A stretch of DNA of 64,000 nucleotides. Origin: Rhizomicrobium sp. (GTDB taxonomy: Bacteria; Pseudomonadota; Alphaproteobacteria; Micropepsales; Micropepsaceae). Location of the stretch: assembly GCA_035548975.1 (NCBI GenBank), contig DASZRY010000001.1, positions 1,439-65,438 of the forward strand. The letters are read 5' to 3'. Positions within the stretch are counted from its first letter, which is position 1. Every line of letters begins with the position of its first letter. The notes under the pieces were generated by a model that saw nothing but the letters and a program-made list of their open reading frames with translations, did not search any database and was not told the DNA's origin. Positions 31,779-60,378 of the stretch are shown here, one piece after another. Position numbers and translations under genes: made by a program.

Positions 31779-31792
31779 TTGATCGAAATCAC
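31779..31792 (+). promoter_or_regulatory. FNR/FixK-like box upstream of chaB
   Basis: TTGATCGAAATCAC (one mismatch), centred ~60 nt before the chaB start. Confidence 0.5.
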
Positions 31793-31845
31793 AGAAACCG
31801 CCTGCCGCGCGTGCACAAATTCCACGCCGGCTGACGGAGACGAAC

Positions 31846-32058
31846 GTGCCCTATCAGACCAATGCGGAGTTACCCATTTCGGTGCGCCATCATTTGCCCG
31901 CGCATGCCCAAAGCATCTATCGCGAGGCGTTCAACCACGCATTTGAGGCCCATGCCGGTGAGGCGGATCGGGAAATCCGCTCTCACAAAATCGCGTGGTC
32001 GGCGGTAAAGCGGTCTTACGAAAAGGTCGGGGACGATTGGGTTCCTCGCGGTACTTGA
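31846..32058 (+). CDS. chaB: ChaB family protein
   Basis: MPYQTNAELP.SVRHHLPAHAQSIYREAFN...AHKIAWSAVKRSYEK.GD.W. Confidence 0.92.
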   Translation: MPYQTNAELPISVRHHLPAHAQSIYREAFNHAFEAHAGEADREIRSHKIAWSAVKRSYEKVGDDWVPRGT

Positions 32059-32106
32059 TTTGATGAATCGCAAAGTGGCGCGCCCGGGCGGTGACAGTAT
32101 CCCCGC

Positions 32107-33828
32107 ATGACGATTCACAATCCCGAGATTGCAAAGCTGTTCGATCGTTACGCGGTGCTTCTGGAGATTCAAGGCGCCAATCCTTTCCGGATTCGTGCCT
32201 ATCGAAACGCAGCGCGAACGATCGAGAATTTGCCGCGCGATATTCCGGCCATGCTGGCGGAGGGCGCCGATCTCGCAGAACTTCCGGGCATCGGCGAGGA
32301 CCTGGCCCACAAGATTGCGAACATCGTCGCCACCGAGCAATTCGCAGAACTGGAAAAGCTCAAACATCGAATGCCGATCGCGTTGGCAGACCTTACCGAA
32401 GTACCGGGAATCGGGCCGCATCGCGTCAAGACGCTTTATCGTCTTCTGAAAATCAAATCGCTGAAGGATCTTGCCGCGGCTGCGCGCAAGGGCCGTTTGA
32501 AGGAACTCCCGGGGTTCGGCCCGAGGATTGAAGCCAATATCCTGAAGAACGTCGAACAGCAATTGACCGAGCACCATCGCTACAAGCTCTCCGACGCGCA
32601 ACATATCGCGGAGTCTCTTGTCGCCTATCTCAAGGCGATACCCGGCGTGGACAAGGCCCAGGTGGCGGGCAGCTATCGCCGCCGAAAGGAAACGGTGGGC
32701 GATCTCGATATTCTCGTGACGTGCGCCAGGAGTGCGACAGTCATCGAGAAGTTCGTTTCCTATTCGGAAGTGAAAGAGGTTCTCGCGAAAGGATCGACGC
32801 GCGCTTCTGTCAAGCTGAGATCTGGCATCCAGATCGATCTAAGGGTGGTGCCGGAGCGCAGCTATGGCGCAGCGCTCGTTTATTTCACGGGTTCCAAGGC
32901 GCACAACATTGCAATACGGGCGCTGGGCCTGAAGCGCCATCTCAAATTCAATGAATATGGCGTATTTCGCGGCAAGAGATGGATCGCAGGGCGCAGCGAG
33001 AAGGACGTATATGCGCAAGTGGGACTTCCCTACATCGAGCCTGAATTGCGTGAAAACCAGGGAGAGCTAGAGGCTGCAAAACTCGGACAGCTTCCCGAAC
33101 TGATCCGCATGGAGGACATAAAGGGCGATCTTCACGTTCACACCGATGCGAGCGATGGCGAAGCCACTCTTGAAGAAATGGTGAAAGCGGCGAAAGAGCT
33201 CGGCTATCGCTATATCGCCATCACCGATCATTCCAAACACATCGGCATAACGCATGGCCTCGACACGCGCAGGCTTGCAGCCCAAATGCGAGCGATCGAC
33301 AGGCTCAACGGCAAGCTGCGTGGCATCGAAATTTTGAAGTCGGCGGAAGTCGATATCATGGCGGATGGATCGCTCGCGCTGCCGGACGGCATTCTCGAAG
33401 ATCTCGATCTTGTGGTCGCCGCAGTACATTCGAAATTCGATCTCGATGCGCAGGCCCAGACCGATCGCATGATTCGCGCGATGGACAACCCTCACGTCAA
33501 TATCATAGCCCACCCATTCGGCCGGCTTTTGGAGGAACGGGCGCCCTGTCAGCTCGATATACAGAGGTTGATGAAAGCTGCGCTCGAGCGTGGATGCCAT
33601 CTGGAAGTGAACGGCCAGCCGGCGCGGCTGGATTTGTCCGACGTGCATTGCCGCATGGCCAAACAGCTCGGCCTGAAACTTGCGATCTCGACCGATGCAC
33701 ACACGCCTGAAACGCTCGGCTATATGCGTTATGGTGTGGATCAGGCCAGGCGGGGCTGGCTTGAACCTTCCGACGTGCTCAATACCCGCGATCTTTCCGA
33801 CTTGCGGCGCCTGCTCAAGCGCCGGTAG
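32107..33828 (+). CDS. polX: DNA polymerase X with PHP 3'-5' exonuclease/phosphoesterase domain
   Basis: GANPFRIRAYR, HhH LPGIG, GSYRRRKETVGDLD, IDLRVV, YFTGSK.HN; PHP DLHVHT, TDH, STDAH. Confidence 0.95.
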   Translation: MTIHNPEIAKLFDRYAVLLEIQGANPFRIRAYRNAARTIENLPRDIPAMLAEGADLAELPGIGEDLAHKIANIVATEQFAELEKLKHRMPIALADLTEVPGIGPHRVKTLYRLLKIKSLKDLAAAARKGRLKELPGFGPRIEANILKNVEQQLTEHHRYKLSDAQHIAESLVAYLKAIPGVDKAQVAGSYRRRKETVGDLDILVTCARSATVIEKFVSYSEVKEVLAKGSTRASVKLRSGIQIDLRVVPERSYGAALVYFTGSKAHNIAIRALGLKRHLKFNEYGVFRGKRWIAGRSEKDVYAQVGLPYIEPELRENQGELEAAKLGQLPELIRMEDIKGDLHVHTDASDGEATLEEMVKAAKELGYRYIAITDHSKHIGITHGLDTRRLAAQMRAIDRLNGKLRGIEILKSAEVDIMADGSLALPDGILEDLDLVVAAVHSKFDLDAQAQTDRMIRAMDNPHVNIIAHPFGRLLEERAPCQLDIQRLMKAALERGCHLEVNGQPARLDLSDVHCRMAKQLGLKLAISTDAHTPETLGYMRYGVDQARRGWLEPSDVLNTRDLSDLRRLLKRR

Positions 33829-33936
33829 GCGGCGGCGCAATTTAATTTCCAAAAATCCCGGAGGGATTTTGCCCGCCGATCCGTGGTTAGGGATGTGGAC
33901 ATAGCCGTAAACCCCGAAAGGCAGGGTGCCCAAGGG

Positions 33937-34533
33937 ATGGCAGACAGGCCAAAAACAGAGGCGGGAGAACCAGCGTTGCCGCGCATCGGCGATGCGCCGG
34001 GAATGGACGCGCTCAAGGCCTGGTTTGTTCGCGAAGTGCTGCCGCTGGAGGCCGTGTTGATTCAATATTTGAGTCGCGGTGGACGCAGCAAATCCGACGT
34101 CGAGGATTTGCGCCAGGACCTCTACATGCGCGTCTGCCTGGCGGCGCAGCAGGAGCTTCCACGCGCCACGCGGCCGTTCGTTTTCAAGATTGCGCGCAAT
34201 CTTCTGATCGACCGGGTGCGCCACGAGCAGGTGGTACCTATCGACCAGGCGGAGAACCTAGAAGACCTCAACATCGCCATCGATGAACCAACGCCCGACC
34301 GCACGGTTATCGCGCGACAGGAGCTGCGGCGCCTGCAGCGCATTCTCGACAAGCTGCCAGAACGCTTCCGCAACGCCATCGTGATGCGCAAGGTGGAAGG
34401 GTTATCCGTGCGCGAAATCTCCGAACGCACCGGCGCGGCTGAAAAGACCGTGGAAAAACATCTGACCGAAGGGATGCGCGCGCTCGCCGAAGAACTGTAT
34501 CGGGATACGGCCGAAACGGGGAGGTCGACTTGA
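33937..34533 (+). CDS. ECF (FecI-like) RNA polymerase sigma factor
   Basis: Region 2 DVEDLRQDLYMRV...FKIARNLLIDRVR; region 4 LDKLPERFR...EGLSVREIS. Confidence 0.9.
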   Translation: MADRPKTEAGEPALPRIGDAPGMDALKAWFVREVLPLEAVLIQYLSRGGRSKSDVEDLRQDLYMRVCLAAQQELPRATRPFVFKIARNLLIDRVRHEQVVPIDQAENLEDLNIAIDEPTPDRTVIARQELRRLQRILDKLPERFRNAIVMRKVEGLSVREISERTGAAEKTVEKHLTEGMRALAEELYRDTAETGRST

Positions 34534-35513
34534 CCGGCCTCGAACAGACATCACCCAGTTCCGCCGACGAGACCGACGCGCGTGCTGCGGCATTTCTCTA
34601 CAAGCAGCACGATGTCGGAACGTGGAGCGATGACGATCAGGCGGAGCTGGACGGTTGGCTTAATGAGTCGTTCGCGAACCGTACGGCCTATTGGCGTCTG
34701 GAAGCGGCGTGGGAACGCGCCAACCGGTTGAACGCATTGCGGCCGATGGCTCGCCAGCTAAGGGCCGCCAAGCCGGAAAAAACAGGTGGACTTCCAATCA
34801 AAATTGCGGCCGCCGCCGTTTTGATTACGGCAGTAGGGGCGAGTATCTGGAAATTTCCCGCGCGGGAGAGCACGGGGTCTTATGCGACACCGATTGGCGC
34901 GCATGAGCGTATCACGCTTGCGGACGGTACGCGTATCGAATTGAACACGAATTCCGAATTGCGTCTCGAAAAGAACGCCCGCAACCGCGTCGTGCGTTTG
35001 GTGCGCGGCGAGGCGTTTTTCGAAGTGCGTCATGACGCGGCCCGGCCGTTCATCGTGTTGGCCCAAGGCCATCGTGTGGTCGATCTCGGCACCAAGTTCG
35101 TTGTTCGCGAGCAACAGGGTGGAATTCGTGTTTCCGTGCTGGAGGGAAGTGCGCGGCTGGAAGCGGGAGAGGCGGGAACATCAGCCAAAGCTGCGGTGCT
35201 GAAGCCGGGTGACGTCGCGCTTGCCACCGAGGGCTCTATCAGGATCGAGAAGGAGCATATCGACACTCTGCAGACGCAGCTGGGATGGCAGCGGGGCGTG
35301 CTCGTTTTCCATCACGCCACGCTCGCCGAGGTCGCCTCGGAATACAACCGATACAACGACCGGCGGATTGTGATCGCAGATCCCGAAGTCGCAAAACTCA
35401 CGATCAGCGCCACGCTGCCAACCAATGACGTCGATGGTTTTGCCCGCATGGCGCAGAACTTCCTGGGACTTCACGTCAAGAACGGCACCGATCGTGTCGT
35501 CATCACGCATTGA
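34530..35513 (+). CDS. FecR family anti-sigma/transmembrane sensor
   Basis: N-terminal AAA..W helix, TM, LADGTRIELNTNS, LVRGEAFFEVRHD, WQRGVLVF, EYNRYN. Confidence 0.92.
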   Translation: MTGLEQTSPSSADETDARAAAFLYKQHDVGTWSDDDQAELDGWLNESFANRTAYWRLEAAWERANRLNALRPMARQLRAAKPEKTGGLPIKIAAAAVLITAVGASIWKFPARESTGSYATPIGAHERITLADGTRIELNTNSELRLEKNARNRVVRLVRGEAFFEVRHDAARPFIVLAQGHRVVDLGTKFVVREQQGGIRVSVLEGSARLEAGEAGTSAKAAVLKPGDVALATEGSIRIEKEHIDTLQTQLGWQRGVLVFHHATLAEVASEYNRYNDRRIVIADPEVAKLTISATLPTNDVDGFARMAQNFLGLHVKNGTDRVVITH

Positions 35514-35533
35514 GTCATCGAAGAGGGGGTAAG

Positions 35534-38500
35534 ATGAGCAACAGGTATCTTCATATATTGGCCGCGACGACGATGTTCACCGCGGTTGCACCGCCTGCGC
35601 AGGCCGGGACCTTCAATATTCCGGGCGGCGATCTCGATGCCGCGCTGGAGTCCTATAGCGCACAATCCGGCGTTCAACTGATGGTTCCGAATGCGGCCGT
35701 CCATGGAATTCGCACGAAGGGCGTGCGCGGCGACCTTTCGGACGGAGAGGCCCTTTCGCGAATCCTGAGCGGTACGGGATTCACCTCGCAACAGGATGAA
35801 TCCGGCGTGATCGGGATTGTACGAGAGCGGCACAGTCAATCCGAGATTCCCGACATTCAATTGGCGCAGGCAATGGCGCCGCGTGCTTCCGTGGAAACCG
35901 TAACCGTTACGTCGTCGAAACTCGGTGGCGCGGATGTGCAGAGCGTGCCGATCGCCATTACCGCGATGAGCCAGGAACAGCTTACCTCGACGCAGACTGC
36001 GGGCGGGCCCGACCTGGTGAAACAGGTGCCGAACCTCACTTTCACCAAGACGAATTTCACAGGATACAACATTCAGATCCGCGGTATCGGCACGCAGGCG
36101 ATTTCGGTTTCGACAGACCCCGCAGTTGCCGTGGCGTTCAACGACACGCCGTTCCTGCGCAATCATTTCTTCGAGCAGGAATTCTTCGACGTCCAGAGCG
36201 TGCAGGTGCTGCGCGGACCTCAAGGCACGTTGTTCGGGCGAAATGCAACCGCCGGCGTCGTCAATGTGATTTCGGCAAAACCCAGCGACCAGTGGGAGGC
36301 ACGCGCCTCCGTGGACGTGGGAAATTATAACAACCGCCGGCTGGAGGGGATGGTCAATATCCCTATTGTGGGTGACATGCTCGATCTGCGCATCGCGGGC
36401 GAATGGACGAAGCGCGACGGCTATGCCTTCAATGAAGAGACCGACAAATCGATCGATGGACGCGATCTTTGGTCGGGACGTGTGTCGTTGTTGATACATC
36501 CCATTCGGGAATTGTCGGCCACCTTCATCTGGGAACATTTCCAGGAAGACGACGACCGGATGCGTTCGACAAAGCAGTTGTGCAAGCGGGACAACCCGCC
36601 GTCCGTTGTGGACGGCCCCGGCGGCCCGATTGTACCCGACGTGAACAATTTCGGCGCGATGTGGTTGACGCAGGGATGCCAGGCGGAGTCGCTTTATTCG
36701 CCGCAATCATACGAAACGCCGAATGCTTCCGGCATTCCGTTCATCCTGGCGCTTGAGGCGTTCACGGGTTACCTGCCGTTCGGCAACGATCCCTATGGGG
36801 GGATCACTCAAACGCCCGATTTGCGCAAGATCAGCGCGCAGATCAATCCCAAATACCGCGCGCGGAACAATACGTATGAATTCAATGTCGATTACAATGT
36901 CACGCCCGATCTGAAGGTGACTTCGCAAACCGGCTATAACGGCGACACCCTCTATTCGACGGAAGACTACAACCGCTTCAACACTGCCGCCGGAATCTGG
37001 AGCGATCCGGGCGGAAACACGCTGGTCGGTCAGGACGGCGAATATTGCGATCCGCAGCTCGGTTGTTCGAGCAGGTTCATCGCACAGGACGTTTCCGAGG
37101 AAACCGCGAGCCAGTTCTACCAGGAAATCCGGATGAGTTCGAGTTTCAGCGGACCGTTCAATTTTGTGGCGGGTGGAAACTATCTCACCTATCACACGCG
37201 GGAGAACTACTACGTCTTCGCGAATGCCATCACGATGACGACGGAATTTTTCAATGCGGCATTTGCCGGTGGCGATCCGCCACCCGCCGATGCACCGCAT
37301 ATTCCGTTCGATCCTGTCAACGCCAATTCCTGCGATCCGCAGCCGGCCGATCCGCAGGCAATCTCGGCGCTGTTCGGACTGGGGTGCGCCTATGTCGATC
37401 CCAATCCGCTCGGCAGCATAGACGGGCAGGGCCACAACTATTTCCGCAGCAACAATCCCGCAGGCTTGAGTTCGTGGGCCTTGTTCGGCGAGGCGTACTA
37501 CAATGTTAGCCCGGATATCAAACTGACGGGCGGCTTGCGCTATACCGACGACAAGAAGAGTTTCGAAGTCATTCCGAGCTGGACGCTGGTGAACGGCATG
37601 GGCTATGTGGTCACCGACAGGATCAAGCAGGAGTGGAAGGAATTCACCGGGCGTGCCGTCGTAAACTGGACGCCGAAGCTCGATTTCACCGACGAGTCGC
37701 TCTTTTACGCATCCTATGCACATGGATATAAAAGCGGCGGGGCCAATCCGCCGGGCGTGATTCCGCTACCTGCATTCGATGGCGGATTTTACAGTTCGCC
37801 CAGCAATCTGACGCATCCGGCAACGTTCAAGCCGGAATACAATAATGCGTTCGAAGTGGGCACGAAGAACACGCTGCTCGACGGCGGGCTGACCGTAAAT
37901 GGGGATGTCTTCTTCTACAAATACAAAGACTATCAGATTTCGCAGATCGTGGACCGCACGGCGATCAACCTGAATTTCAATGCCACGGTCCGAGGTGCCG
38001 AAATCGAGACGAACTGGGAGCCGCTTCCTGGTCTGAAACTGGGATTCAACGGCGGTTATGAAAACGCGACGTTCGACGACAATCAGTATGCAATCGACTT
38101 GATGGACCGGACGGCAGGCCATCCCGGCTGGATCGTGTTGAAGCCGGCGATCACAGAGACTTCTAACTGTGTTCTACCGACCTATGTCATTAACGCAATT
38201 CTGGCCAGTCCGTTTGCTTCGCCTCTCGCGGTTGCCTGCGGCGTGGCCTATGGCGGCGGTTCAAGTTTGCTTGCCGGGACCGCAGGCGGTTACGATCCGG
38301 TTACGGCAAATCCGTACACACCGAACCCGAATCCGGTACAGTTTCCCAATTATCCAGGCTTCGACCCGCTGGCGGGAACAGCCGGCGATCCCTATACCGG
38401 ACAAAACACGTTCAACGGCGTGGACTACGGCCCCGTGCCCAACAGCGGTGAAGGATTTGAGAAAAGCGTCGGCGGCAATCAGCTTCCCAATTCACCGCAC

Positions 38501-38830
38501 TTCACCACCAGCATCTCGGCCGATTACACAATGCCTCTGTCCGCCGATTGGGCCGGAACGCTGCACGGCGATTTCTACTGGCAGTCGAGATCCTACTGGC
38601 GAATTTTCAACGACAGCGAGTACGACAAGCTGGAAGGCTATACGAACCTGAACTTCGCCCTGATCTTCACAAACCAGGACGGCTGGCAAGCAATGGCCTA
38701 CGTCAAGAATGTTCTCGATACCACTGCGATCACAGGCGCGTTTCTGAACTCCGACGACTCGGCATTGACGACCAACGTCTTCGTCACCGATCCGCGGCTG
38801 TTCGGCATCCGCATCACCAAGAACTGGTAG
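35534..38830 (+). CDS. TonB-dependent receptor with N-terminal signalling (STN) domain
   Basis: Signal peptide, STN domain, VETVTVTS TonB box, VLRGPQGTLFGRNA plug motif, C-terminal PRLFGIRITKNW. Confidence 0.93.
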   Translation: MSNRYLHILAATTMFTAVAPPAQAGTFNIPGGDLDAALESYSAQSGVQLMVPNAAVHGIRTKGVRGDLSDGEALSRILSGTGFTSQQDESGVIGIVRERHSQSEIPDIQLAQAMAPRASVETVTVTSSKLGGADVQSVPIAITAMSQEQLTSTQTAGGPDLVKQVPNLTFTKTNFTGYNIQIRGIGTQAISVSTDPAVAVAFNDTPFLRNHFFEQEFFDVQSVQVLRGPQGTLFGRNATAGVVNVISAKPSDQWEARASVDVGNYNNRRLEGMVNIPIVGDMLDLRIAGEWTKRDGYAFNEETDKSIDGRDLWSGRVSLLIHPIRELSATFIWEHFQEDDDRMRSTKQLCKRDNPPSVVDGPGGPIVPDVNNFGAMWLTQGCQAESLYSPQSYETPNASGIPFILALEAFTGYLPFGNDPYGGITQTPDLRKISAQINPKYRARNNTYEFNVDYNVTPDLKVTSQTGYNGDTLYSTEDYNRFNTAAGIWSDPGGNTLVGQDGEYCDPQLGCSSRFIAQDVSEETASQFYQEIRMSSSFSGPFNFVAGGNYLTYHTRENYYVFANAITMTTEFFNAAFAGGDPPPADAPHIPFDPVNANSCDPQPADPQAISALFGLGCAYVDPNPLGSIDGQGHNYFRSNNPAGLSSWALFGEAYYNVSPDIKLTGGLRYTDDKKSFEVIPSWTLVNGMGYVVTDRIKQEWKEFTGRAVVNWTPKLDFTDESLFYASYAHGYKSGGANPPGVIPLPAFDGGFYSSPSNLTHPATFKPEYNNAFEVGTKNTLLDGGLTVNGDVFFYKYKDYQISQIVDRTAINLNFNATVRGAEIETNWEPLPGLKLGFNGGYENATFDDNQYAIDLMDRTAGHPGWIVLKPAITETSNCVLPTYVINAILASPFASPLAVACGVAYGGGSSLLAGTAGGYDPVTANPYTPNPNPVQFPNYPGFDPLAGTAGDPYTGQNTFNGVDYGPVPNSGEGFEKSVGGNQLPNSPHFTTSISADYTMPLSADWAGTLHGDFYWQSRSYWRIFNDSEYDKLEGYTNLNFALIFTNQDGWQAMAYVKNVLDTTAITGAFLNSDDSALTTNVFVTDPRLFGIRITKNW

Positions 38831-38993: not shown

Positions 38994-40106
38994 CTATTCG
39001 GCCGCCATGGCCTGCGGATTACCGCCCTCCATGGCATTGAGGATGCGCGGGTCGTCGAAGATCGGAATTCCCACTTCCTCGTATTTCTTGCGAACGGCTG
39101 GAGTAATGAGCCCGACGCGCGCGATGGCCGGCAGCATCAGGTCCTTCAGCGAATGCACCTGTCCGGGCGGCAGTTCCTGCAAAAGGCCCATGTCTTTGGC
39201 TTCTTCGAGCCCCTTGAAGAAATCATCCGCGTCGATGCCCGCATTGGCCAGAACTTCCATGAAGCCGGGGTCCATTCGATTGGCCAGCCCCTGTGCCTCG
39301 CCCATGCTCGTTGCCTGCACAATGATGTTGATGGCGTTGAAGGCGAATTCGGCGAGGTCTTCACGCGCGGCTTCGTCGAGCTTCGCGATCACCGGTTCCA
39401 GATAGACATATCCGAAGGAAACATGCCGCGATTCGTCGCGCATCACGTTGTAAGTAATGGCCTTCAAAAGCGGGCAAGTGGTGGAATGATACATGTTGCT
39501 GAAGGCGCCAAGAGCCAGCCCTTCGACAATCATGTTCATGCCGATCATCACCTTTTCGTAGCGGTCCGATTTCAGCGTCGCATCGATGATCGCCTTGAGC
39601 CAGGGCGACATCGGGTAGACCATCGCTATCTTGTCGCAATATTTGGCGTAAACCTCCACGTGCCGTGCCTCGTCCATGGTCTGCGACGCCGCGTACAATT
39701 TGGCCTTCGCATCCGGGACGGAGTGCGTCACGCATGCCGCCGTCATCAACGCACCCTGTTCGCCATGCAGGAATTGCGAAAGAAGTTGGGCGGTCGAGTG
39801 CGCAGTGAATGTTTCGCGTTGCGATTTCGACAGCTTGTTGAAGAACGGCATCTTGTGGAAAAGCGATGCGCGATCCGAAACCAGCGGTTTGGACGGATCG
39901 ACCTGCGTGTTCCACGGCAGGATTTCGTCGGAATCCCACTGCTGCTGTTTCGCCCGCTTGTAAAGATCTTCGACCTTGCCGCGCCCGAGCGCGTAGTCGA
40001 AAGTCCAGGCAATTTCCATCGGATTGCGATAGCAATCGTCGGGGGTCATCGTGACTTTCCAGTCGCCTTTGGTGACGATCCTGGCGGTGTTGTCCTGAGC
40101 CATCAT
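38994..40106 (-). CDS. Ferritin-like diiron-carboxylate protein (AurF-like/diiron oxygenase family)
   Basis: Ligand pattern HGEQGA / DEARH / VEGLA / DESRH (E...ExxH twice). Confidence 0.8.
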   Translation of the reverse strand: MMAQDNTARIVTKGDWKVTMTPDDCYRNPMEIAWTFDYALGRGKVEDLYKRAKQQQWDSDEILPWNTQVDPSKPLVSDRASLFHKMPFFNKLSKSQRETFTAHSTAQLLSQFLHGEQGALMTAACVTHSVPDAKAKLYAASQTMDEARHVEVYAKYCDKIAMVYPMSPWLKAIIDATLKSDRYEKVMIGMNMIVEGLALGAFSNMYHSTTCPLLKAITYNVMRDESRHVSFGYVYLEPVIAKLDEAAREDLAEFAFNAINIIVQATSMGEAQGLANRMDPGFMEVLANAGIDADDFFKGLEEAKDMGLLQELPPGQVHSLKDLMLPAIARVGLITPAVRKKYEEVGIPIFDDPRILNAMEGGNPQAMAAE

Positions 40107-40157: not shown

Positions 40158-40171
40158 TTGATCCATGTCAA
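40158..40171 (-). promoter_or_regulatory. FNR/FixK box of the diiron protein gene
   Basis: TTGATCCATGTCAA (minus strand TTGAC-N4-ATCAA), centre ~58 nt upstream of start. Confidence 0.7.
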
Positions 40172-41780: not shown

Positions 41781-41794
41781 TTGATCAGGATCAA
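41781..41794 (-). promoter_or_regulatory. Perfect FNR/FixK box upstream of the monooxygenase
   Basis: TTGATCAGGATCAA, centre ~61 nt upstream of GTG 41726. Confidence 0.82.
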
Positions 41795-46122: not shown

Positions 46123-46131
46123 CGCAGCGCT

Positions 46132-47168: not shown

Positions 47169-47170
47169 GT

Positions 47171-50147: not shown

Positions 50148-50161
50148 TTGATTCGGATCAA
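50148..50161 (-). promoter_or_regulatory. Perfect FNR/FixK box
   Basis: TTGATTCGGATCAA in AT-rich intergenic DNA. Confidence 0.78.
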
Positions 50162-51767: not shown

Positions 51768-51781
51768 GTGACCTACATCAA
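51768..51781. promoter_or_regulatory. FNR/FixK-like box between divergent kinase and hsp20 genes
   Basis: GTGACCTACATCAA (perfect ATCAA half, variant left half), central in the 114-nt intergenic gap. Confidence 0.6.
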
Positions 51782-52365: not shown

Positions 52366-52372
52366 TGTGTAT

Positions 52373-52404
52373 GCCGGATGGCGGGCACTTGCCCGCCATC
52401 CGGC
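52373..52404. other. Perfect 14-bp GC-rich hairpin between hsp20 and the host-attachment gene
   Basis: gccggatggcgggc-actt-gcccgccatccggc; no U-tract, so more likely an mRNA stabilising/processing stem than a terminator. Confidence 0.6.
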
Positions 52405-52460
52405 GGGGAAGTTGGACCGTTCCCACGACGCTGGCGTATCCACTATCGCAGGAGGCATGA

Positions 52461-52913
52461 ATGCCCAAAATTCCACTCTCGAACGGCACATGGGTGGTTG
52501 CCTGCGACGGTGCCAAAGCCGTCGTCTTCGAGAATACGGGTGATTGGGAGTACCCCCATCTCGAATTGCGTCAGGAGATGGCACAACCCGATCCGCCCGA
52601 CCGGGAGATTTACACTGGCCCAAAGGGCCGCGTTTTCAATCGCGCCGATGGAGCAGGCAGCACAATCGAGCGCGATGATGCGCATCAGCGCGCCGAGATG
52701 CAGTTCATGAAGAGTGTCGCACACTATCTCGACAAGGCAGTGGCCGACGGCAAGATCAAAAAGATGGTCGTGGCGGCAGCGCCGCGCGCGCTCGGCGTTC
52801 TCAGGGCCGCGCTCTCCAAGCGGGCGCATGCCGCAATCATCGCCGAAATCGACCGGGACTATGTCAAGATGCCTGCCTATGAAATCGAGTCCGTATTGTC
52901 GAAGAAGCAATAG
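52461..52913 (+). CDS. Host attachment (AtsE-like / baeRF12) family protein, aeRF1-fold
   Basis: TWVVACDGAKAVVFEN, GRVF, F...VA..L, MVVAAAPRALGVLRAAL...I.AEIDRDYVK; no GGQ. Confidence 0.88.
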   Translation: MPKIPLSNGTWVVACDGAKAVVFENTGDWEYPHLELRQEMAQPDPPDREIYTGPKGRVFNRADGAGSTIERDDAHQRAEMQFMKSVAHYLDKAVADGKIKKMVVAAAPRALGVLRAALSKRAHAAIIAEIDRDYVKMPAYEIESVLSKKQ

Positions 52914-52939
52914 TTGTTTCCCATCCGGCGGGGGCAGAT

Positions 52940-54307
52940 ATGACCGTGACGCTCACATTCCTTGGCGGCGTCGGGACTGTCACCGGTTCGAAATATCTTC
53001 TGGAGAATAACGGCCGTCGGTTGTTGGTCGATTGCGGGCTTTTCCAAGGCTACAAGACTTTGCGCCTGCGCAACTGGGCAGCGCTTCCCGTCGCAGCCAG
53101 CAGCATCGACGCAGTGGTCTTGACCCACGCCCATCTCGATCACACGGGATACCTGCCGTTGCTTGTCAAGCATGGATTTGACGGGCCAGTATTTTGCACC
53201 GACGCAACACAAGATTTGTGTTCCATCCTGCTTCCCGATTCCGCACACCTGCAGGAGCGAGATGCCGAATCCGCCAATCGTTTTGGCTATTCCAAGCATC
53301 ATCCTGCGTTGCCGCTCTATACGGAAGAAGATGCGCAGCGCGCGCTCAAGCTGTTGCAGAAGAAGAAAATCGGCGAAACCTTCAACGTTCTGGAAGATGC
53401 GCGCGTCAAGTTTACGCGTGCCGGGCACATTCTCGGCGCTTCTTCCATTTCGTTAAACTGGGGCGGTGTGACGATCGTCATTTCCGGCGATATCGGACGC
53501 TATGACGATCCTCTGATGCCTGATCCAGAAACGCCGGAGCGGGCCGATTATCTGTTGATGGAATCGACCTACGGCGACAGAGTTCACGAAAAACGGGATC
53601 CGGCGGACGCGCTGGCCGAAATAATAGAAAAAACAATTCGTCGCGGCGGCACCATTGTGGTTCCTGCATTTGCGGTGGGGCGAGCGCAGATCTTACTTTA
53701 CCACATCGGACGACTAAGAGCTGCAAAACGCCTGCCGGACTGGTTGCCCATTTATCTGGACAGCCCTATGGCCATTGAAGCAACCGAGATTTTTCAACGC
53801 CATTTTGACGATCAGAAGCTATCTTCCACCGAACTCCGCTCATTGGATTCAAGCGTACAATATGTTCATACGGGCCAGGAATCGAAGGATGTAACCGACA
53901 ACCCGATGCCGAAGATCGTTATCTCGGCAAGCGGCATGGCGACAGGCGGGCGGGTTCTGCACCATCTCAAGCAATATGCGCCGGATCCGAAGAATGCGAT
54001 CATTTTTGCGGGCTTTCAGGCTGGCGGTACGCGCGGCGCATCCATGGTGGCGGGCGCGGAAAGCGTGAAAATACATGGAGCCTATATTCCCGTTCGCGCC
54101 GACGTGCACAATTTGAACATGCTGTCCGCACACGCCGACCGCGACGAACTCCTTCGCTGGGCGGGAGCGATGAAGGCGCCACCGCGCACGACCTTCATTG
54201 TACATGGTGAACCGTCAGGCGCGGACGTTTTGCGTCATACACTCGAGGAAAAGCTGCATTGGAACTGCGTGGTGCCGGATTATCGCGAAACGGTGATCCT
54301 CTCATGA
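52940..54307 (+). CDS. MBL-fold beta-CASP ribonuclease (YSH1-like)
   Basis: THAHLDHTG, GDIG, ESTYGDR, PAFAVGRAQ, SGMATGGRVLHH, SAHAD, VHGE. Confidence 0.93.
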   Translation: MTVTLTFLGGVGTVTGSKYLLENNGRRLLVDCGLFQGYKTLRLRNWAALPVAASSIDAVVLTHAHLDHTGYLPLLVKHGFDGPVFCTDATQDLCSILLPDSAHLQERDAESANRFGYSKHHPALPLYTEEDAQRALKLLQKKKIGETFNVLEDARVKFTRAGHILGASSISLNWGGVTIVISGDIGRYDDPLMPDPETPERADYLLMESTYGDRVHEKRDPADALAEIIEKTIRRGGTIVVPAFAVGRAQILLYHIGRLRAAKRLPDWLPIYLDSPMAIEATEIFQRHFDDQKLSSTELRSLDSSVQYVHTGQESKDVTDNPMPKIVISASGMATGGRVLHHLKQYAPDPKNAIIFAGFQAGGTRGASMVAGAESVKIHGAYIPVRADVHNLNMLSAHADRDELLRWAGAMKAPPRTTFIVHGEPSGADVLRHTLEEKLHWNCVVPDYRETVILS

Positions 54308-55824
54308 TCGATCCGACCGGCCAGCATCCGCAACAACTGAAGGTGCGCCACCTGGGCATTGACACCCATTCCGATGCGGTAGTCTTCATGCGAAAGGATT
54401 CGCCGGTGTGCCGGTCGGAAGGTTTTGCCTCCCACAATCGCATCATGCTTTGCGCCGGGGACCGCTACATCATTGCGACGCTCTATCAGGTGGAATCCGG
54501 TCTGCTTGCGGCCGACGAAGCCGGCCTTTCAAGCGCCGCCTGGCAGCGCCTGGAGGCAAAGGATGGCGAAATTGTCATCGCGAAACACGCGCCGCCGCTG
54601 GAATCGCTGAGCCTCGTGCGCAGCCGCATTTACGGACACACGCTCGGCGATGACGCGTTGCATGCAATTGTTGCCGATATTGTGGACGGCCGCTATTCGA
54701 CCATCGAAATTTCGTCTTTTGTCACTACCTGCGCCACGCGTCCGCTAGTCCGTTCTGAAGTGCTGGGTCTCACGCGCGCCATGGTCCGGACCGGCGGGCG
54801 TCTTTCGTGGGATGTTCCGGTTGTCGCTGACAAGCATTCCGTCGGAGGCCTGCCCGGAAATCGTACAACGCCGATAATCGTTTCGATTATCGCGTCGCTT
54901 GGTCTTATTATGCCAAAAACGTCTTCTCGAGCCATCACATCGCCTGCTGGTACTGCCGACACAATGGAGACGCTTGCACCTGTCGTCTTGGATGCCAAAA
55001 AAATCCATGACGTTGTTGAACGCGAAGGCGGTTGCATCGCCTGGGGAGGGGCAGTCGGTCTCAGCCCGGCCGACGACATTCTGATTCGTGTCGAACGCGC
55101 GCTCGATCTCGATACCGAAGGTCAGATGATTGCCTCAGTCCTTTCGAAAAAGATCGCGGCCGGGTCAACACATCTGGTGCTCGATATTCCCGTGGGCCCC
55201 ACCGCGAAAGTTCGCAATGAAGATGCTGCCAAATCGATGACGGCCGGTCTCATGGCAGTCGCAGAATCGTTCGGCATTCGCACGCACATTGTCTGCGGGG
55301 ACGGTACGCAACCCATCGGCCGGGGGATAGGACCCGCACTTGAAGCAAGAGACGTGTTGAGCGTGCTCAAGAATGAAGCGCACGCGCCGCAGGATTTACG
55401 GCAACGCGCACTGAAATTGGCGGGAGCACTTCTCGAATTGGGCGGTAAGGCGCAAGCAGGAATGGGCGAGGACGTGGCGGCCAAGACATTGGATGACGGC
55501 AGAGCATGGAACAAATTCCAGCGCATCTGCGAAGCGCAGGGTGGGATGCGCACACCGCCGATCTCCAGCCATCGAAGGGCGTTATCGGCGGCTCGTCACG
55601 GCGCAGTTGGAACAATCGACAATCGCAAGATTGCGCGGCTGGCCAAACTCGCCGGTGCGCCCGAAGACAAGGCCGCAGGCGTCGAACTGCACGTCAAGGC
55701 CGGCGACACCGTGGTGCGCGGACAGCCACTTTGCACTGTCCACGCGGAATCGCCGGGCGAATTGGCGTATGCGCTGAATTATGCCGAGGCCAATCCCGAT
55801 ATCTTCCAGATCGAAGATATATGA
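54304..55824 (+). CDS. Thymidine phosphorylase family protein of the AMP-phosphorylase type
   Basis: N-terminal extension (LGIDT...VFMR) typical of AMP phosphorylases; DKHSVGGLPGNRTT, KTSSRAITSPAGTAD, SVLSKKIAAGS, GRGIGPALEA. Confidence 0.9.
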   Translation: MIDPTGQHPQQLKVRHLGIDTHSDAVVFMRKDSPVCRSEGFASHNRIMLCAGDRYIIATLYQVESGLLAADEAGLSSAAWQRLEAKDGEIVIAKHAPPLESLSLVRSRIYGHTLGDDALHAIVADIVDGRYSTIEISSFVTTCATRPLVRSEVLGLTRAMVRTGGRLSWDVPVVADKHSVGGLPGNRTTPIIVSIIASLGLIMPKTSSRAITSPAGTADTMETLAPVVLDAKKIHDVVEREGGCIAWGGAVGLSPADDILIRVERALDLDTEGQMIASVLSKKIAAGSTHLVLDIPVGPTAKVRNEDAAKSMTAGLMAVAESFGIRTHIVCGDGTQPIGRGIGPALEARDVLSVLKNEAHAPQDLRQRALKLAGALLELGGKAQAGMGEDVAAKTLDDGRAWNKFQRICEAQGGMRTPPISSHRRALSAARHGAVGTIDNRKIARLAKLAGAPEDKAAGVELHVKAGDTVVRGQPLCTVHAESPGELAYALNYAEANPDIFQIEDI

Positions 55825-56708
55825 GCGTGCCGCTACTCTTCGCTATGCCCGGCAACGAGGCGATGACGCAGCGGCTCGTGCCGCTCACGCGGGGCGATGT
55901 GGGAACACTGCAGGTTCGCAATTTTCCCGACCGGGAAACCTATTTGCGATTTCGCGACAAGCTTTCCGGCCGTTCGGTTGCTTTAGTTTGCACACTCGCA
56001 GATCCCGATCCCAAAATACTTCCGTTGCTTTTTGCGGCCGACACTGCGCGCGAGTTGGGCGCAGTAAAAGTGGGTCTCGTTGCACCATACCTTGCCTATA
56101 TGCGGCAGGACCGCCGTTTCCATCCGGGCGAAGCGATCACCTCGCAGCGATTTGCGGCAATCCTTTCGCAATCCCTCGATTGGCTTGTCACGATCGATCC
56201 GCATTTGCACCGCTACAAATCGCTTGCCGAACTCTACAGTATTCCCACCCGTGTTCTGCACAGCGGCACGACTCTGTCGAAATGGATTGTCGAAAAGGTC
56301 CCCAATCCGTTCATTGTTGGACCGGACGAGGAAAGTGAACAATGGGTGGCTGAGATCGCAAGAGAGTCCGGCGCACCATATAGCGTGTTGCATAAACGGC
56401 GACTGGAAGACGAACGGGTGGAGATCGACGTAGGCCACCTCGGACCTATTGGAAACAAAACACCGATTCTGGTGGACGATATCATCTCAAGCGGCGGCAC
56501 AATGCTGGAAGCTATTCGAAAGCTTGCGGAGCTCGTTCGAATTCCGCCAGTCTGCCTTGCCGTGCACGGGATATTTGCAAATCACTCGGACCAGCTTCTC
56601 GTCGATGCCGGCGCACGCTTGGTCACTACCGACAGCATTGAAAATCCTCACGCCGAAATCGGCATTGCTCCTTTGCTGGCGTCTGCCATCTCCGAATTCG
56701 TGTCTTGA
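55821..56708 (+). CDS. prs: Ribose-phosphate pyrophosphokinase (accessory, archaeal-like short type)
   Basis: FPDRETY, PYLAYMRQDRRF, DPHLH, GPDEES, HKRR, VDDIISSGGT. Confidence 0.9.
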   Translation: MSVPLLFAMPGNEAMTQRLVPLTRGDVGTLQVRNFPDRETYLRFRDKLSGRSVALVCTLADPDPKILPLLFAADTARELGAVKVGLVAPYLAYMRQDRRFHPGEAITSQRFAAILSQSLDWLVTIDPHLHRYKSLAELYSIPTRVLHSGTTLSKWIVEKVPNPFIVGPDEESEQWVAEIARESGAPYSVLHKRRLEDERVEIDVGHLGPIGNKTPILVDDIISSGGTMLEAIRKLAELVRIPPVCLAVHGIFANHSDQLLVDAGARLVTTDSIENPHAEIGIAPLLASAISEFVS

Positions 56709-56724
56709 AGAAGCGGGAATATTC

Positions 56725-57183
56725 GTGCCCCAGGTCAGCGCAGGAATTCTTCTCTACCGGAGAAAGGGCGGCGAATTGCAGGTGTTTCTTGTTCATCCGG
56801 GGGGTCCTTTCTGGGCGGGGAAAGATGTTGCCGCCTGGTCGATTCCCAAGGGCTTGATCGGCCCCGATGAAAACACGCTTGACGCCGCCAGACGCGAATT
56901 TTTCGAGGAAACCGGATTTCGCCTGGATGGCGAGGCTCATGAACTTGGCGTTTTCCGTCAACCAAGCGGAAAGCGAATCCATGTTTGGATCCAGAAAGGC
57001 AATTGCAATCCTTCGCGCCTCGTGAGCAACAGATTTAAGATGATTTGGCCGCCGAAGTCCGGCAAGACGAAGACTTTTCCCGAAGTCGATCGTGGCGGGT
57101 GGTTCAAAAGGCAAGAAGCCATGGCGAAAGTCGCCAAAGGCCAACGGCCAATCATCGAAGCGCTTTTCAAAAAGTTTGGCTAG
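56725..57183 (+). CDS. Nudix hydrolase
   Basis: Nudix box GLIGPDENTLDAARREFFEETG; HPGGPFW, FPEVDR; GTG start. Confidence 0.9.
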   Translation: MPQVSAGILLYRRKGGELQVFLVHPGGPFWAGKDVAAWSIPKGLIGPDENTLDAARREFFEETGFRLDGEAHELGVFRQPSGKRIHVWIQKGNCNPSRLVSNRFKMIWPPKSGKTKTFPEVDRGGWFKRQEAMAKVAKGQRPIIEALFKKFG

Positions 57184-57186: not shown

Positions 57187-59574
57187 TCATTGAGATGCAG
57201 GCTGCTCCGGCGAAAGGCCGGCTGCAATTGCATCCTTCAAATGTTCGAGCCAGATAAATTCCAACTTATCGCGCGCTTCGGTGGGAATGTCGTCAAAATC
57301 CTTCCGGTTGCGTGCAGGCAGCATGACGCGTTTGATACCGGCACGCGCGGCAGCAGCGACTTTCTCCTTTATGCCGCCCACGGGAAGCACCAGCCCCCGC
57401 AAACTGATTTCGCCCGTCATCGCGGTGTCGCTACGAACGGTGCGATCCGTCATCAAAGAAATCAGCGCCATGAACATTGCAACGCCTGCGCTTGGTCCGT
57501 CTTTGGGCGTGGCGCCCGCCGGTACGTGAATATGAATATCGCTCTTCTCGAAACGGGCGGGATCTATGCCTAGGGAAGCCGCCGAGCCTTTCACAACGCT
57601 CAACGCCGCTTGCGCACTTTCGCGCATCACTTCGCCGAGCTGGCCGGTCAGGATCAGCTTGCCGCTGCCAGGAATGCGCGTTGCCTCGATAAAAAGTATG
57701 TCTCCACCCACGGGAGTCCAGGCAAGGCCGGTGGCCACCCCCGGAATGCTTGTGCGCAATGCGACTTCATCTTCGAACACTGGCGGCCCCAGGATTTCTT
57801 TGAGATCGCTTGCACCAATGTGCACCGTGCCCGGCCGGCCTTCGGCAATGCGCACGGCGGCATGGCGCAATGCCTTTCCAATCTGCCGCTCGAGGCTGCG
57901 AACGCCGGCTTCGCGCGTGTAGTGATCGATTATGTCGCGAATCGCATCATCGCCAAGTTCCGCCTGACCTTCCTTCAGACCGTTGGCTTCCATTTGCCGT
58001 CCAACGAGGTAGCGTTTGGCAATTTCGAACTTTTCGGTGGCTGTGTAACCGCTGAGGTTGATGATCTCCATGCGGTCGCGCAGCGGACCTGGAACTGTAT
58101 CCAACACATTTGCTGTAGTTATAAATACGACGCGGCTCAGGTCGAACGGCACAGCCAGATAGTTGTCCCGGAATGTCGCGTTCTGTTCGGGGTCGAGTAC
58201 TTCAAGCAAGGCTGCACTGGGGTCGCCCTGTATACCTGCGCCGAGTTTATCGATTTCATCGAGCATCATCACGCAATCGCGTGAGCCCGCCTTGCGGATC
58301 GCCTGAATGATATTGCCCGGCAGCGAACCGATGTAAGTCCGCCGATGACCGCGAATCTCCGCCTCATCGTGCACACCGCCAAGGCTGACGCGCACGAATT
58401 TGCGCTTCATTGCGCGCGCGATGGACTGGCCAAGCGATGTTTTTCCCACGCCTGGCGGTCCAACGAAACACAAGATCGGCGCCTTGCCCGTTGGCGCCAA
58501 TTTGCGAACCGCGAGATATTCCACGATTCGCTGCTTAATCTTTTCGAGACCATAGTGGTCCGCGTCCAGAACGCGGCGCGCCTCCGCCATGTCGATAGGC
58601 GCTTCTTCCGGCAATGCCCAAGGAAGTTCGATCAACCAGTCGAGATAGGTGCGCACCATGCTGTATTCGCCTGCGGCTTCCGGCATGCGCTCCAGCCGCT
58701 TCAATTCCTTGCGGGCCTGGTCTTCGACCTCGCGCGGCATTTTTGCTTTGGCGATCGCCTCCGACAGTTCTGCTAATTCAGCGGCCTTGCCTTGCTCGCC
58801 GCCTTCGCCGAGCTGACGCTGGATTGCCGCCATTTGTTCGCGCAACAAGACTTCGCGTTGCCGTTCGTCCAGGGCGGCTTTCGTTTGCCGGCCGATTTCC
58901 TGCGAGAGGCGCTGGACCTCGATCCGGTGGGCAAGGAGCTTGGACACCTTTTCCATGCGCGCGGAAATATCGATCGTTTCGAGGATCTCCTGCTTTTCCT
59001 CCGGCTTGATATCCATGTAAGCCGCAGAAAGATCCGCAAGCGCTCCTGGAGAATCAATTGCTTCGATCGCAGCGATCAATTCCGTGGGCGCTTGCGGAAG
59101 CAATTGGACGGATTCCAGTGCCTGCTGTTTGAGTACCGAAAGCCGCGCTTCGATCTCGGATGATTTCGCAGTGGGCTCCGAAATTCGCAGGACACGCGCT
59201 GCCATGAACGGCCAACCGTCAAGAAATTCCGTAATTTGAAATCGCTGTTCGCCCTGACAAACGAGATGGGTCGACCCATCTGGCGCTGTGAGATAGCGCA
59301 CGATATTGGCGACGGTCCCAACTCGATGCATGTCCAAAGGAGACGGCTCGGCAACTTCGGATTCGCGTTGCAGCAAAATGCCGACGGGTGTCTGCAGTCG
59401 CACCGCCTGCTGCGCCGCGGCCAATGACCGCGGACGTCCAACAGTCACGGGAAATACAATTCCCGGAAACAGCACGAGATTGCGTACTGGCACGATGATC
59501 AAAGCATCCGATGGCAATGGCTTTTCTTGCGCCGTCCCGCCGCCGCCACCCGTGTCATTACGCAAATCAGCCAC
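57187..59574 (-). CDS. lon: Lon (La) ATP-dependent protease
   Basis: DADHYGLEKIK, GPPGVGKTS, RGHRRTYIG, PKDGPSAG catalytic Ser, VGGIKEK; GTG start with GGAG RBS. Confidence 0.96.
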   Translation of the reverse strand: MADLRNDTGGGGGTAQEKPLPSDALIIVPVRNLVLFPGIVFPVTVGRPRSLAAAQQAVRLQTPVGILLQRESEVAEPSPLDMHRVGTVANIVRYLTAPDGSTHLVCQGEQRFQITEFLDGWPFMAARVLRISEPTAKSSEIEARLSVLKQQALESVQLLPQAPTELIAAIEAIDSPGALADLSAAYMDIKPEEKQEILETIDISARMEKVSKLLAHRIEVQRLSQEIGRQTKAALDERQREVLLREQMAAIQRQLGEGGEQGKAAELAELSEAIAKAKMPREVEDQARKELKRLERMPEAAGEYSMVRTYLDWLIELPWALPEEAPIDMAEARRVLDADHYGLEKIKQRIVEYLAVRKLAPTGKAPILCFVGPPGVGKTSLGQSIARAMKRKFVRVSLGGVHDEAEIRGHRRTYIGSLPGNIIQAIRKAGSRDCVMMLDEIDKLGAGIQGDPSAALLEVLDPEQNATFRDNYLAVPFDLSRVVFITTANVLDTVPGPLRDRMEIINLSGYTATEKFEIAKRYLVGRQMEANGLKEGQAELGDDAIRDIIDHYTREAGVRSLERQIGKALRHAAVRIAEGRPGTVHIGASDLKEILGPPVFEDEVALRTSIPGVATGLAWTPVGGDILFIEATRIPGSGKLILTGQLGEVMRESAQAALSVVKGSAASLGIDPARFEKSDIHIHVPAGATPKDGPSAGVAMFMALISLMTDRTVRSDTAMTGEISLRGLVLPVGGIKEKVAAAARAGIKRVMLPARNRKDFDDIPTEARDKLEFIWLEHLKDAIAAGLSPEQPASQ

Positions 59575-59983
59575 GGCCGCGCTCCGTTTTGTGAAGCGTG
59601 ACGACGATGCAGCCGTCCAGTGATGCTCTTTCGACGCCGCTGTATCGTCCCGCCGGCACCACAATCCGCCGGCTGAACCGGCCTTGCGGAAGCTCCAGCC
59701 GGTGGATGGTCGCCGTCGCAAGTTCGCGCGGCAGATGACGCGCGCCCGAAATCACGAGACAGCCCCCGTCGATTCTCGCTTCCACACTTTCGGGATTGAC
59801 GCCTGGCAGGGCAGCGAAGATCAGAATCTTGCTGGCCGTTTCGATGATGTCGACCGGCGGTTCCCAACTGGGTCCCGCCGATCCATGTTGGGGCTCAAAA
59901 AATTGACGGTGCAAGCGCTCCGCGCGCGTGAGCATCTCCACGGCTTCGGACCACATCCAGCTTCGCGGATAGCGATCTTCCAT
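59567..59983 (-). CDS. Hsp20 family protein co-transcribed with lon
   Basis: WEPPVDIIET, AALPGV, HRLELPQGRFSRRI; GAGGAG RBS; overlaps lon start. Confidence 0.88.
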   Translation of the reverse strand: MEDRYPRSWMWSEAVEMLTRAERLHRQFFEPQHGSAGPSWEPPVDIIETASKILIFAALPGVNPESVEARIDGGCLVISGARHLPRELATATIHRLELPQGRFSRRIVVPAGRYSGVERASLDGCIVVTLHKTERGRG

Positions 59984-60094
59984 CGCGGCACTCCTCATTC
60001 CTTTGAACTTATTCCATACCTATCGCCAGAGCGGTTCAAGCCGGGTCGCACTTCCCCATCCCCAGGACAGGTTCCAGAATTTCAATTTGTGACC

Positions 60095-60310
60095 TTAGTG
60101 TTTGCTCAGATGACGCTCGACATACCAAAGCGCTCCGAGCCAAACAGCGATGCCAAGGCCGGCTGCCGCCACCAGCGCATACAAGAGATCGACGTCGCCC
60201 GTAATGCTGAATACGGCTAGAAAAACGAAGGCGGCAAAGCCAATTCCGATGATATGAGCGATCCGGCGAAGGCGCCCTCTTGCTGCTGAATGTTCTGCGT
60301 CGGGCGTCAC
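60095..60310 (-). CDS. Small two-TM membrane protein
   Basis: 71 aa with two hydrophobic helices; follows a perfect FNR box. Confidence 0.6.
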   Translation of the reverse strand: MTPDAEHSAARGRLRRIAHIIGIGFAAFVFLAVFSITGDVDLLYALVAAAGLGIAVWLGALWYVERHLSKH

Positions 60311-60364
60311 ATGAGCCGATCGTTAAACTCCATCACCATTGTGGCGGTTAGATGCCGGAGGGCC

Positions 60365-60378
60365 TTGATTCAAATCAA
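60365..60378 (-). promoter_or_regulatory. Perfect FNR/FixK box
   Basis: TTGATTCAAATCAA, centre ~61 nt upstream of GTG 60310. Confidence 0.8.

Follow-up and report, generated by a model that had tools for sequence, protein, structure and literature searches.

The boxes described here are palindromes of the FNR/FixK type (TTGAT-N4-ATCAA) that lie among the genes surrounding a cbb3 oxidase operon in an uncultured bacterium whose genome was assembled from a metagenome. The window, that is, the whole stretch of 64,000 nt that was analysed (C1:1439-65438), is part of a 2.92-Mb assembly (G000; 127 contigs, estimated to be 97% complete), and all genome-wide counts refer to this one genome. The GTDB genus to which it belongs is large and diverse, and its members carry the NCBI label 'Rhizomicrobium sp.' (Micropepsaceae). 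Genes were called with a simple codon-model caller of open reading frames (ORFs), which gave 2839 genes (91.4% coding) and hence an intergenic share of 8.6%. Domains were assigned with Pfam and NCBIfam profiles and with the aid of ORF lists.

The centre of the boxed region is occupied by ccoNOQP-ccoGHIS (41809-49542, minus strand), encoding the cbb3 oxidase and its assembly proteins (Pfam COX1, FixO, FixP_N, FixG_C, FixH and E1-E2 ATPase with HMA); the ccoN start was set by alignment with five relatives. Upstream of ccoN on the same strand lies an ORF of 59 codons with the motif GGW-x-A-[YWF]-C (49523-49702), which is the first cistron behind the perfect box TTGATTTGGATCAA (49758-49771), and then orf92 (49834-50112, minus strand), which encodes a small two-helix membrane protein (MLCCTFI...) and stands behind the perfect box TTGATTCGGATCAA (50148-50161). 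At the other end of the operon, the perfect box TTGATCAGGATCAA (41781-41794) begins 15 nt after the ccoS stop codon and is the predicted promoter box of a gene for a flavin-dependent (FMO/BVMO-like) monooxygenase of 503 aa (40215-41726, minus strand; Pfam FMO-like, with weak NCBIfam matches). The next gene, for an AurF/R2-like diiron oxygenase-family protein of 370 aa (38994-40106, minus strand; Pfam AurF, 50.3 bits), has its own box, TTGATCCATGTCAA (40158-40171), with one mismatch and a fit to TTGA-N6-TCAA. A gene for a 519-aa protein that joins an APH-type kinase to an AAA_33 P-loop kinase (50167-51726, minus strand; Pfam) diverges from a plus-strand series (51841-57183; Pfam, NCBIfam) that consists of hsp20a and the genes for a baeRF12/host-attachment protein, a beta-CASP metallo-hydrolase, a thymidine/AMP-phosphorylase-family protein, a ribose-phosphate diphosphokinase (PRS) and a Nudix protein; the divergent gap holds the degenerate, two-mismatch box GTGACCTACATCAA (51768-51781). 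The perfect box TTGATTCAAATCAA (60365-60378) precedes orf71 (60095-60310), with hsp20b (59567-59983; Pfam HSP20) and Lon2 (57187-59574; Pfam Lon) further along, all on the minus strand. On the plus strand, chaB (31846-32058; 70 aa; Pfam ChaB, 77.8 bits) and the gene for a PolX-family DNA polymerase with PHP (32107-33828; HHH_8, thumb, palm and PHP domains) are found behind the weak box TTGATCGAAATCAC (31779-31792), which has one mismatch and the right half TCAC. A variant with two mismatches, TTGATAGCGGTCAG, is located at 49673-49686. All eight boxes listed in a first-pass annotation of this DNA were thus recovered at their positions.

The boxes are far more frequent than the composition of the DNA predicts. 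Dinucleotide-preserving shuffles of the window (n = 100) gave an expectation of 0.04 perfect boxes vs four found, and 1.97 boxes with at most one mismatch vs seven found; neither observed number was reached in any of the shuffles. The genome as a whole holds eight perfect boxes, seven of which are intergenic, and four of them lie within an 18.6-kb part of the window, so that the density here is not that of the genomic background, the result by which the first-pass annotation would have been overturned. When the half-site was replaced by each of 20 permutations of the same composition, TTGAT alone gave more than one intergenic palindrome (seven vs a maximum of one). The core TTGA-N6-TCAA, which corresponds to the FixK2 box TTGA/C-N6-T/GCAA (PMC9104804), occurs 66 times in the genome and is intergenic in 23 cases (35% vs 8.6% of the DNA). 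Both classes are clustered as well: if the boxes are placed at random within the intergenic DNA, finding four of the seven perfect boxes within 18.6 kb has P ~5e-5, and finding five of the 23 intergenic core boxes within 20.3 kb has P ~4e-4. The statement that the first 27 kb contain no perfect box holds in a stricter form, as neither a perfect nor a one-mismatch box occurs before position 29573. Among the one-mismatch boxes of the genome, 19 of 84 are intergenic.

Boxes with two mismatches were dropped as evidence. Their number in the window (29 vs 22.2 expected) was reached in eight of the 100 shuffles; genome-wide, 79 of 925 are intergenic, which is the background level, and 12 of these 79 lie 50-70 nt from a start codon, vs 12% of random intergenic positions. 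With this count so near to the shuffle level, 49673 and 51768 could not be called from the sequence alone. The former lies inside the conserved upstream ORF, contrary to the claim that all eight boxes are intergenic, which stands for the other seven, and has no counterpart box in four relatives (G001, G003, G004 and G008); it is probably a chance match. The one-mismatch box at 29573 and the core box at 55357 are both within coding sequence and were treated as chance too.

The boxes at 31779, 40158 and 51768 appear credible because of their position and because boxes are found at the same genes in relatives. The chaB-polX pair of G072 follows the box TTGATTGAAATCAG at a distance of 71.5 nt, and the right half of that box shows the same imperfection. 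An orthologue of the diiron gene (82% identical) adjoins cco in G004 and stands behind the box TTGACGAAGATCAA. In G002 and G008, a full TTGA-N6-TCAA is found immediately before the kinase orthologue, which supports the degenerate box 51768; its support consists of these proper boxes at orthologous promoters and its own position. The cco boxes recur likewise. A box is found 200-220 nt before the ccoN ATG in G001, G003, G004, G008 and G073, the second upstream box recurs in G003 and G073 (310 and 401 nt from the first, respectively, vs 390 nt here), and in G008, too, a box follows directly after ccoS. Seven of the eight boxes are accordingly taken as credible predicted FixK sites. They head about eight units with about 24 genes in the window, which bears out the view that the regulon would extend far beyond the cco operon.

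The distance from box to start codon is similarly regular, at about 55-67 nt in general. The first-pass annotation had placed the centres of five boxes ~58-67 nt from a start codon, and the measured values agree with this: 60.5 nt from box 31779 to the chaB GTG (31846), 58.5 nt from box 40158 to an ATG (40106) that has the ribosome-binding site GGGAGA, 61.5 nt from box 41781 to a GTG (41726), 66.5 nt from box 51768 to the hsp20a start (51841) and 61.5 nt from box 60365 to a GTG (60310). Box 51768 is centred 48.5 nt from the kinase start (51726) on its other side. Box 49758 lies 62.5 nt from the ATG of the upstream ORF and 222.5 nt from that of ccoN, and box 50148 is 42.5 nt from the ATG of orf92 (50112). 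Genome-wide, nine of the 19 intergenic one-mismatch boxes are 50-70 nt from the adjacent start codon, vs 12% of random intergenic positions. An alignment of the 45 nt after each of 23 oriented boxes showed an information content that is flat but for one peak, at +23 to +28, which is A-rich from +23 to +25 and has A or T in 18 of 23 sequences at +27. With the box centre taken as −41.5, this peak covers positions −12 to −7. The geometry is consistent with class II activation from boxes centred near −41.5 and with leaders of ~15-25 nt, although it does not prove either. Behind box 50148, the sequence CTATAT occupies the predicted −12 to −7 positions and the ATG follows 7 nt later, which suggests that the orf92 mRNA is probably leaderless.

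A regulator that could read these boxes is encoded elsewhere in the genome, as had been anticipated. No Crp/Fnr gene is present anywhere on the contig of the window (C1), in accordance with the first-pass statement that the window lacks fnr, fixK and fixLJ. A search of the genome with HTH_Crp_2 revealed two good Crp-family proteins, one on contig C14 and one on C62. The C14 gene (174981-175691; PF13545, 78.7 bits vs a cut-off of 27) encodes the sole FNR/FixK-type protein of the 97% complete genome. Among solved structures its product matches FixK2 best (4i2o; residues 29-229, E = 4.8e-42; 147 bits vs 75 bits for FNR), and its best NCBIfam model is NF050806, the Caulobacter FixK (209.2 bits vs 113.9 for FnrL). 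The protein has no N-terminal Cys cluster and no C-x2-C-x5-C motif, its only cysteines being C71 and C198. Judged by these sequence features it is a FixK-type protein, not FNR or FnrN, and tblastn found no paralogue of it in the genome. Of the recognition helix E-x-x-S-R, by which this subfamily reads TTGA, the protein has Glu195 and Arg199, with Cys198 in the position of Ser (ETVCR). This helix is found in all 13 FixK orthologues of the genus, and paralogues read ETVSR. Cys198 aligns with Ser199 of FixK2 (4i2o), and the position of the oxidation-sensitive Cys183 of FixK2 is Ser in the C14 protein; Cys198 may represent a relocated redox switch. The C62 protein was rejected as a reader of the boxes since it has a CRP-type helix (R-E-x-x-N-R) and a cyclic nucleotide (cNMP)-type pocket. 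A helix of this type predicts TGTGA-type sites.

The fixK gene stands in a fixL-fixJ/fixT-fixK cluster that carries four boxes itself. The box at C14:169705 is followed by an ORF of 34 codons, fixL (169951-171087), with the heme-PAS motif RRKDGSTFPMYLSVGE, and fixJ (171084-171686; NF006900, 257.6 vs a cut-off of 255). Next come an ADP-forming acyl-CoA synthetase/GNAT gene in divergent orientation and the box at 174418, behind which lie a gene for a FixT-like single receiver, fixK, which starts 3.3 kb downstream of fixJ, and two small genes. The box at 179034 precedes a universal stress protein gene, and that at 181044 precedes galT and an ORF of 91 codons.

The boxes of the window are probably operator sites of this FixK-type Crp/Fnr activator. 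In such a scheme FixL would phosphorylate FixJ at low oxygen, FixJ would turn on fixK, and the FixK dimer would bind TTGA-N6-TCAA near −41.5 and recruit RNA polymerase in the class II manner, giving mRNAs with leaders of ~15-25 nt or, for orf92, probably without a leader. The units so driven would be the cbb3 operon (via the upstream ORF), the two oxygenases, the small membrane protein, the APH/P-loop kinase, the operon of hsp20, baeRF12, beta-CASP, nucleoside phosphorylase, PRS and Nudix, the hsp20-Lon2 operon and, more weakly, chaB-polX.

Several points weigh against this assignment. The C14 protein scores below the NF050806 equivalog cut-off of 300, and its helix departs from the usual ETVSR. 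The boxes at 31779 (TCAC) and 51768 (GTGA) each break one core position, and the gene calls rest on a crude ORF caller. Box 60365 is not conserved in position, the corresponding operon of G050 and G072 beginning upstream at HPF. Moreover, G002 and G010 keep the kinase, in G002 with a box and in G010 with none found at that copy, yet their Crp/Fnr homologues are only distant (31-38% identity). Other members of the family may hence read such boxes, and this also speaks for the view that the sites are real operators with a reader other than FixK, encoded in the unassembled ~3% of the genome or on C62, or that they serve mainly for repression or dual control. The fragmented, 97% complete assembly and the nearly identical motifs of FNR, FnrN, FixK and DNR (PMC4999443, PMC2908626) are compatible with another reader, and repression has a precedent in FixK2, which represses its own gene in Bradyrhizobium (PMC9104804). 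We nevertheless consider both variants unlikely: a paralogue of FixK was not detected by tblastn, the C62 protein has the wrong helix and pocket, fixLJ and fixT-fixK are themselves surrounded by boxes, and activation would suit both the spacing and the −10 signal.

Still less probable is that the boxes are relics, brought in with horizontally acquired modules from FNR/FixK-controlled donors and unused in this host. The patchy distribution of the modules, their boxes in many lineages and the lower GC content of the block (see below) are in line with such an origin, but unused sites would decay, and four of the boxes are perfect 10/10 palindromes. The host, besides, keeps a complete fixLJ-fixT-fixK set with its own boxes, and the cco boxes are kept in sequence and spacing in G073. 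A purely compositional origin of the palindromes, with no regulatory meaning, is barely conceivable. It would suit the two-mismatch class, which is at chance level, and box 49673, which looks like chance; for the perfect and one-mismatch boxes it is opposed by the shuffles, the permutation control, the intergenic bias, the clustering, the phasing with start codons and the conservation, and for seven of the eight boxes it is effectively refuted. Control by the C14 FixK is thus the reading that we follow below.

The conserved upstream ORF, which accounts for the long gap between box 49758 and ccoN, has an overlap of 20 nt with the ccoN ATG. An ORF of ~57-59 codons is kept in six genomes of the genus, with variation at third codon positions. 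No such ORF was seen before ccoN in three other families, and it has no Pfam or NCBIfam match. Such an arrangement could couple or gate the translation of ccoN. In G001 and G003, the conserved N-terminus of the orf92 product (M-x-C-C-T-F-I) is again encoded ahead of cco; the gene is unmatched in G073, and it gave no match to Pfam or NCBIfam, which also applies to orf71 and to several other small FixK-boxed ORFs.

Lon2 and the housekeeping Lon (C4:36056-38332) have 46% identity, and the Lon2 gene always follows an Hsp20 gene. Its orthologues were found in G050 and G072 only (two of 60 genomes of the genus), where the operon consists of HPF-CSD (a fusion of HPF(S30AE) with a cold-shock domain), baeRF12, hsp20b and Lon2; HPF is preceded, at a distance of 60 nt, by the box TTGCGTTCGATCAA, behind which a −10-like xATAGT occupies the predicted position, and orf71 was not found at these two operons. 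In the present genome the HPF-CSD orthologue is located on C34 with a matching box, TTGCTTTGCATCAA, which suggests that an ancestral operon was split and that each piece is boxed. Two FixK-boxed units are seen at C34:8028-12239, namely the HPF-CSD gene and a nitroreductase gene followed by a second FtsH (FtsH2), and one of the boxes is identical to box 41781 of the window. Elsewhere in the genome, intergenic core boxes precede hemN, HPF-CSD, nitroreductase-FtsH2, pckA, a universal stress protein gene and others.

The distribution of the boxed genes in the genus is patchy. Among 19 sampled genomes, ccoN was found in five and the kinase in six, and one or the other is present in nine of 14 genomes with a FixK-like gene and in none of five without (Fisher one-sided p ~0.02); PolX occurs in three of 60 genomes. 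What the closest relative, G073 (FixK 84% and CcoN 93% identical), has in common with the boxed block is limited to the upstream ORF, ccoNOQPGHI and the two upstream boxes; the phosphorylase module is absent from it altogether, and G004 shares only cco and the diiron gene. Synteny of the whole block is shared by no sampled relative, and the footprints were for this reason made gene by gene. A distance of 5-7 kb separates fixK from the phosphorylase module or the kinase in G003, G005, G050 and G072. At eight loci in other families, hsp20, baeRF12 and the phosphorylase module accompany the kinase, and TTGA-N6-TCAA occurs there 0-6 times per ~20 kb (at least once at seven of the eight) vs a background of ~0.45 in the present genome. 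Where the phosphorylase gene is the first of its operon, a box precedes it.

It had been proposed that the block was assembled or rewired as a low-oxygen island. The patchy distribution, with the cco part alone shared by G073, marks the block as accessory. Of the two proposals, assembly is the better fit, since the same modules carry FixK boxes in other genera, in other families and in Bradyrhizobium and so would have arrived already wired. The GC content between 35 and 60 kb (0.56-0.585) is 1-2.5 sd lower than the genome mean (0.602, sd 0.016), and a tRNA-Gln gene (60714-60788) adjoins the block. An integrative island with its att site at this tRNA-Gln was considered and rejected: there is no repeat of at least 11 nt that would mark a second border, and no integrase is found among the annotated genes. 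On the present comparison, the block is a lineage-specific assembly of apparently pre-wired modules and not demonstrably a mobile element.

A close counterpart of the circuit is FixLJ-FixK2 of Bradyrhizobium diazoefficiens. The motif is the same, a cluster-free FixK stands downstream of a heme-FixL and FixJ, and the shared target families comprise fixNOQP/GHIS, hemN, the operon of thymidine phosphorylase, PRS and MBL hydrolase, Hsp20, universal stress, host-attachment and 'translational machinery' proteins and the nitroreductase operon. In B. diazoefficiens, bll3117-3116-3115 (thymidine-phosphorylase family, PRS and MBL hydrolase), hspC2, the genes for a universal stress protein, a host attachment protein and a 'translational machinery protein', the nitroreductase operon and ppsA are FixK2-dependent and boxed (PMC9104804), and induction in microoxia is reported for the bll3115-3117 proteins (PMC6515984). 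The present organism belongs to another order (Micropepsales-like) and has no nif or denitrification targets in view, and Lon2, PolX, the diiron oxygenase and the monooxygenase are not among the FixK2 targets in the accessible part of the published lists. With Caulobacter crescentus it shares a FixT-like single-domain receiver directly before fixK, and with the reconstructed Caulobacterales regulon (cco, hemN, fixLJ, fixK) it shares boxes before fixL, fixK, cco and hemN (PMC4999443). The FixT-like protein has two Cys only, and an Fe-S site such as the one in Caulobacter FixT (PMC7078487) is not evident. In Caulobacter, Lon degrades FixT (bioRxiv 10.1101/2024.02.05.579008); a second, dedicated Lon as a predicted FixK target, as found here, is not reported in the portion of the literature available.

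The low-oxygen locus lxa of Burkholderia cenocepacia is a block of 50 genes with a candidate FixK-type regulator elsewhere, and a likeness to DosR was noted for it (PMC6127331). Its tens of contiguous hypoxia-induced genes (universal stress, alpha-crystallin/Hsp20 and nitroreductase-like proteins and others) recall the block of the window, as does the remote location of the candidate regulator, under FixLJ; compared by its published description, lxa differs in being betaproteobacterial, in part of its content and in the absence of a cbb3 core. The consensus and the inferred place relative to the −10 element are those of class II sites of E. coli FNR (TTGAT-N4-ATCAA at −41.5). Unlike FNR, the regulator here is without the [4Fe-4S] Cys cluster, and oxygen would be sensed upstream by FixL. 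The DosR regulon of M. tuberculosis comprises alpha-crystallin, universal stress, nitroreductase, aeRF1-like, phosphoribosyltransferase-type and APH/ATP-binding fusion proteins. Its gene families thus overlap with those described here, as those of a functional analogue compared by family only, whereas its NarL-type regulator and its motif are unrelated.

A more speculative extension of the FixK assignment, to which we would give rather less than an even chance, is that FixK drives a programme of hypoxic hibernation, made up of the window block and the FixK-boxed units of C14 and C34 and convergent with the DosR regulon of mycobacteria. HPF-CSD and baeRF12 would park ribosomes, Lon2, FtsH2 and the two Hsp20s would provide proteolysis and holdases, beta-CASP, the AMP/thymidine-phosphorylase-like protein, PRS and Nudix would salvage RNA and nucleotides, and PolX would serve repair in non-growing cells. 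On the same view, DNA binding by FixK could be directly oxidant-sensitive through the Cys of ETVCR, and the upstream ORF could contribute translational control of the cbb3 oxidase.

In a comparative study, the core of the FixK regulon comprised FixL, FixJ, Hsp20, a CBS protein and a kinase; extended regulons differed between close relatives, and core targets were often co-located (PMC2908626). The present findings match this model of core and extended regulons and so confirm it rather than overturn it. The boxed part of the window is, as far as its sequence tells, an unusually dense, lineage-specific cluster around the cbb3 operon, of a FixLJ-FixK (FixT) regulon type that is already well described. 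A literature search found nothing linking Rhizomicrobium to FixK, and the FixLJ-FixK circuit, in the FixT arrangement seen in Caulobacter, is now extended to an uncultured Micropepsales-like soil lineage, with ~30 predicted targets that can be tested. The extended regulon seems to have grown by the shuffling of ready-wired modules beside the core cco genes, of which the closest relative keeps the core only. Less expected are the second Lon, PolX, two oxygenases that would consume O2, the ORF upstream of ccoN and the Cys in the FixK helix, none of which opens a new question by itself; the probably leaderless orf92 is a further feature outside the textbook scheme.

The remainder of the window consists of other genes. 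The first 27 kb hold core genes (kdsD-like, rpoN, pabBC, aroA, rpsA, trpB, accD and folC). One core box, TTGACCGGTCTCAA at 267-280, fits TTGA-N6-TCAA and is intergenic; it is the sole such box in these 27 kb, and a gene with a 3'-5' exonuclease domain (406-1017) begins 132.5 nt from its centre. An ECF-sigma/FecR/TonB-receptor cassette (33976-38830), unrelated to the boxed units, separates chaB-polX from the other boxed block. The genome has at least 18 paralogous cassettes of ECF-sigma, FecR and TonB-dependent receptor genes (50-68% identical), many of which sit at contig ends and are thus probably the cause of assembly breaks. Outside the window, an erythromycin-esterase-family gene (C10:3478-4640) is preceded by TTGATTTCCGTCAA, with a distance of 91.5 nt between box centre and gene start; the ORF caller puts this box within the coding region that comes before. 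The erythromycin-esterase family is also present in the mycobacterial DosR regulon.

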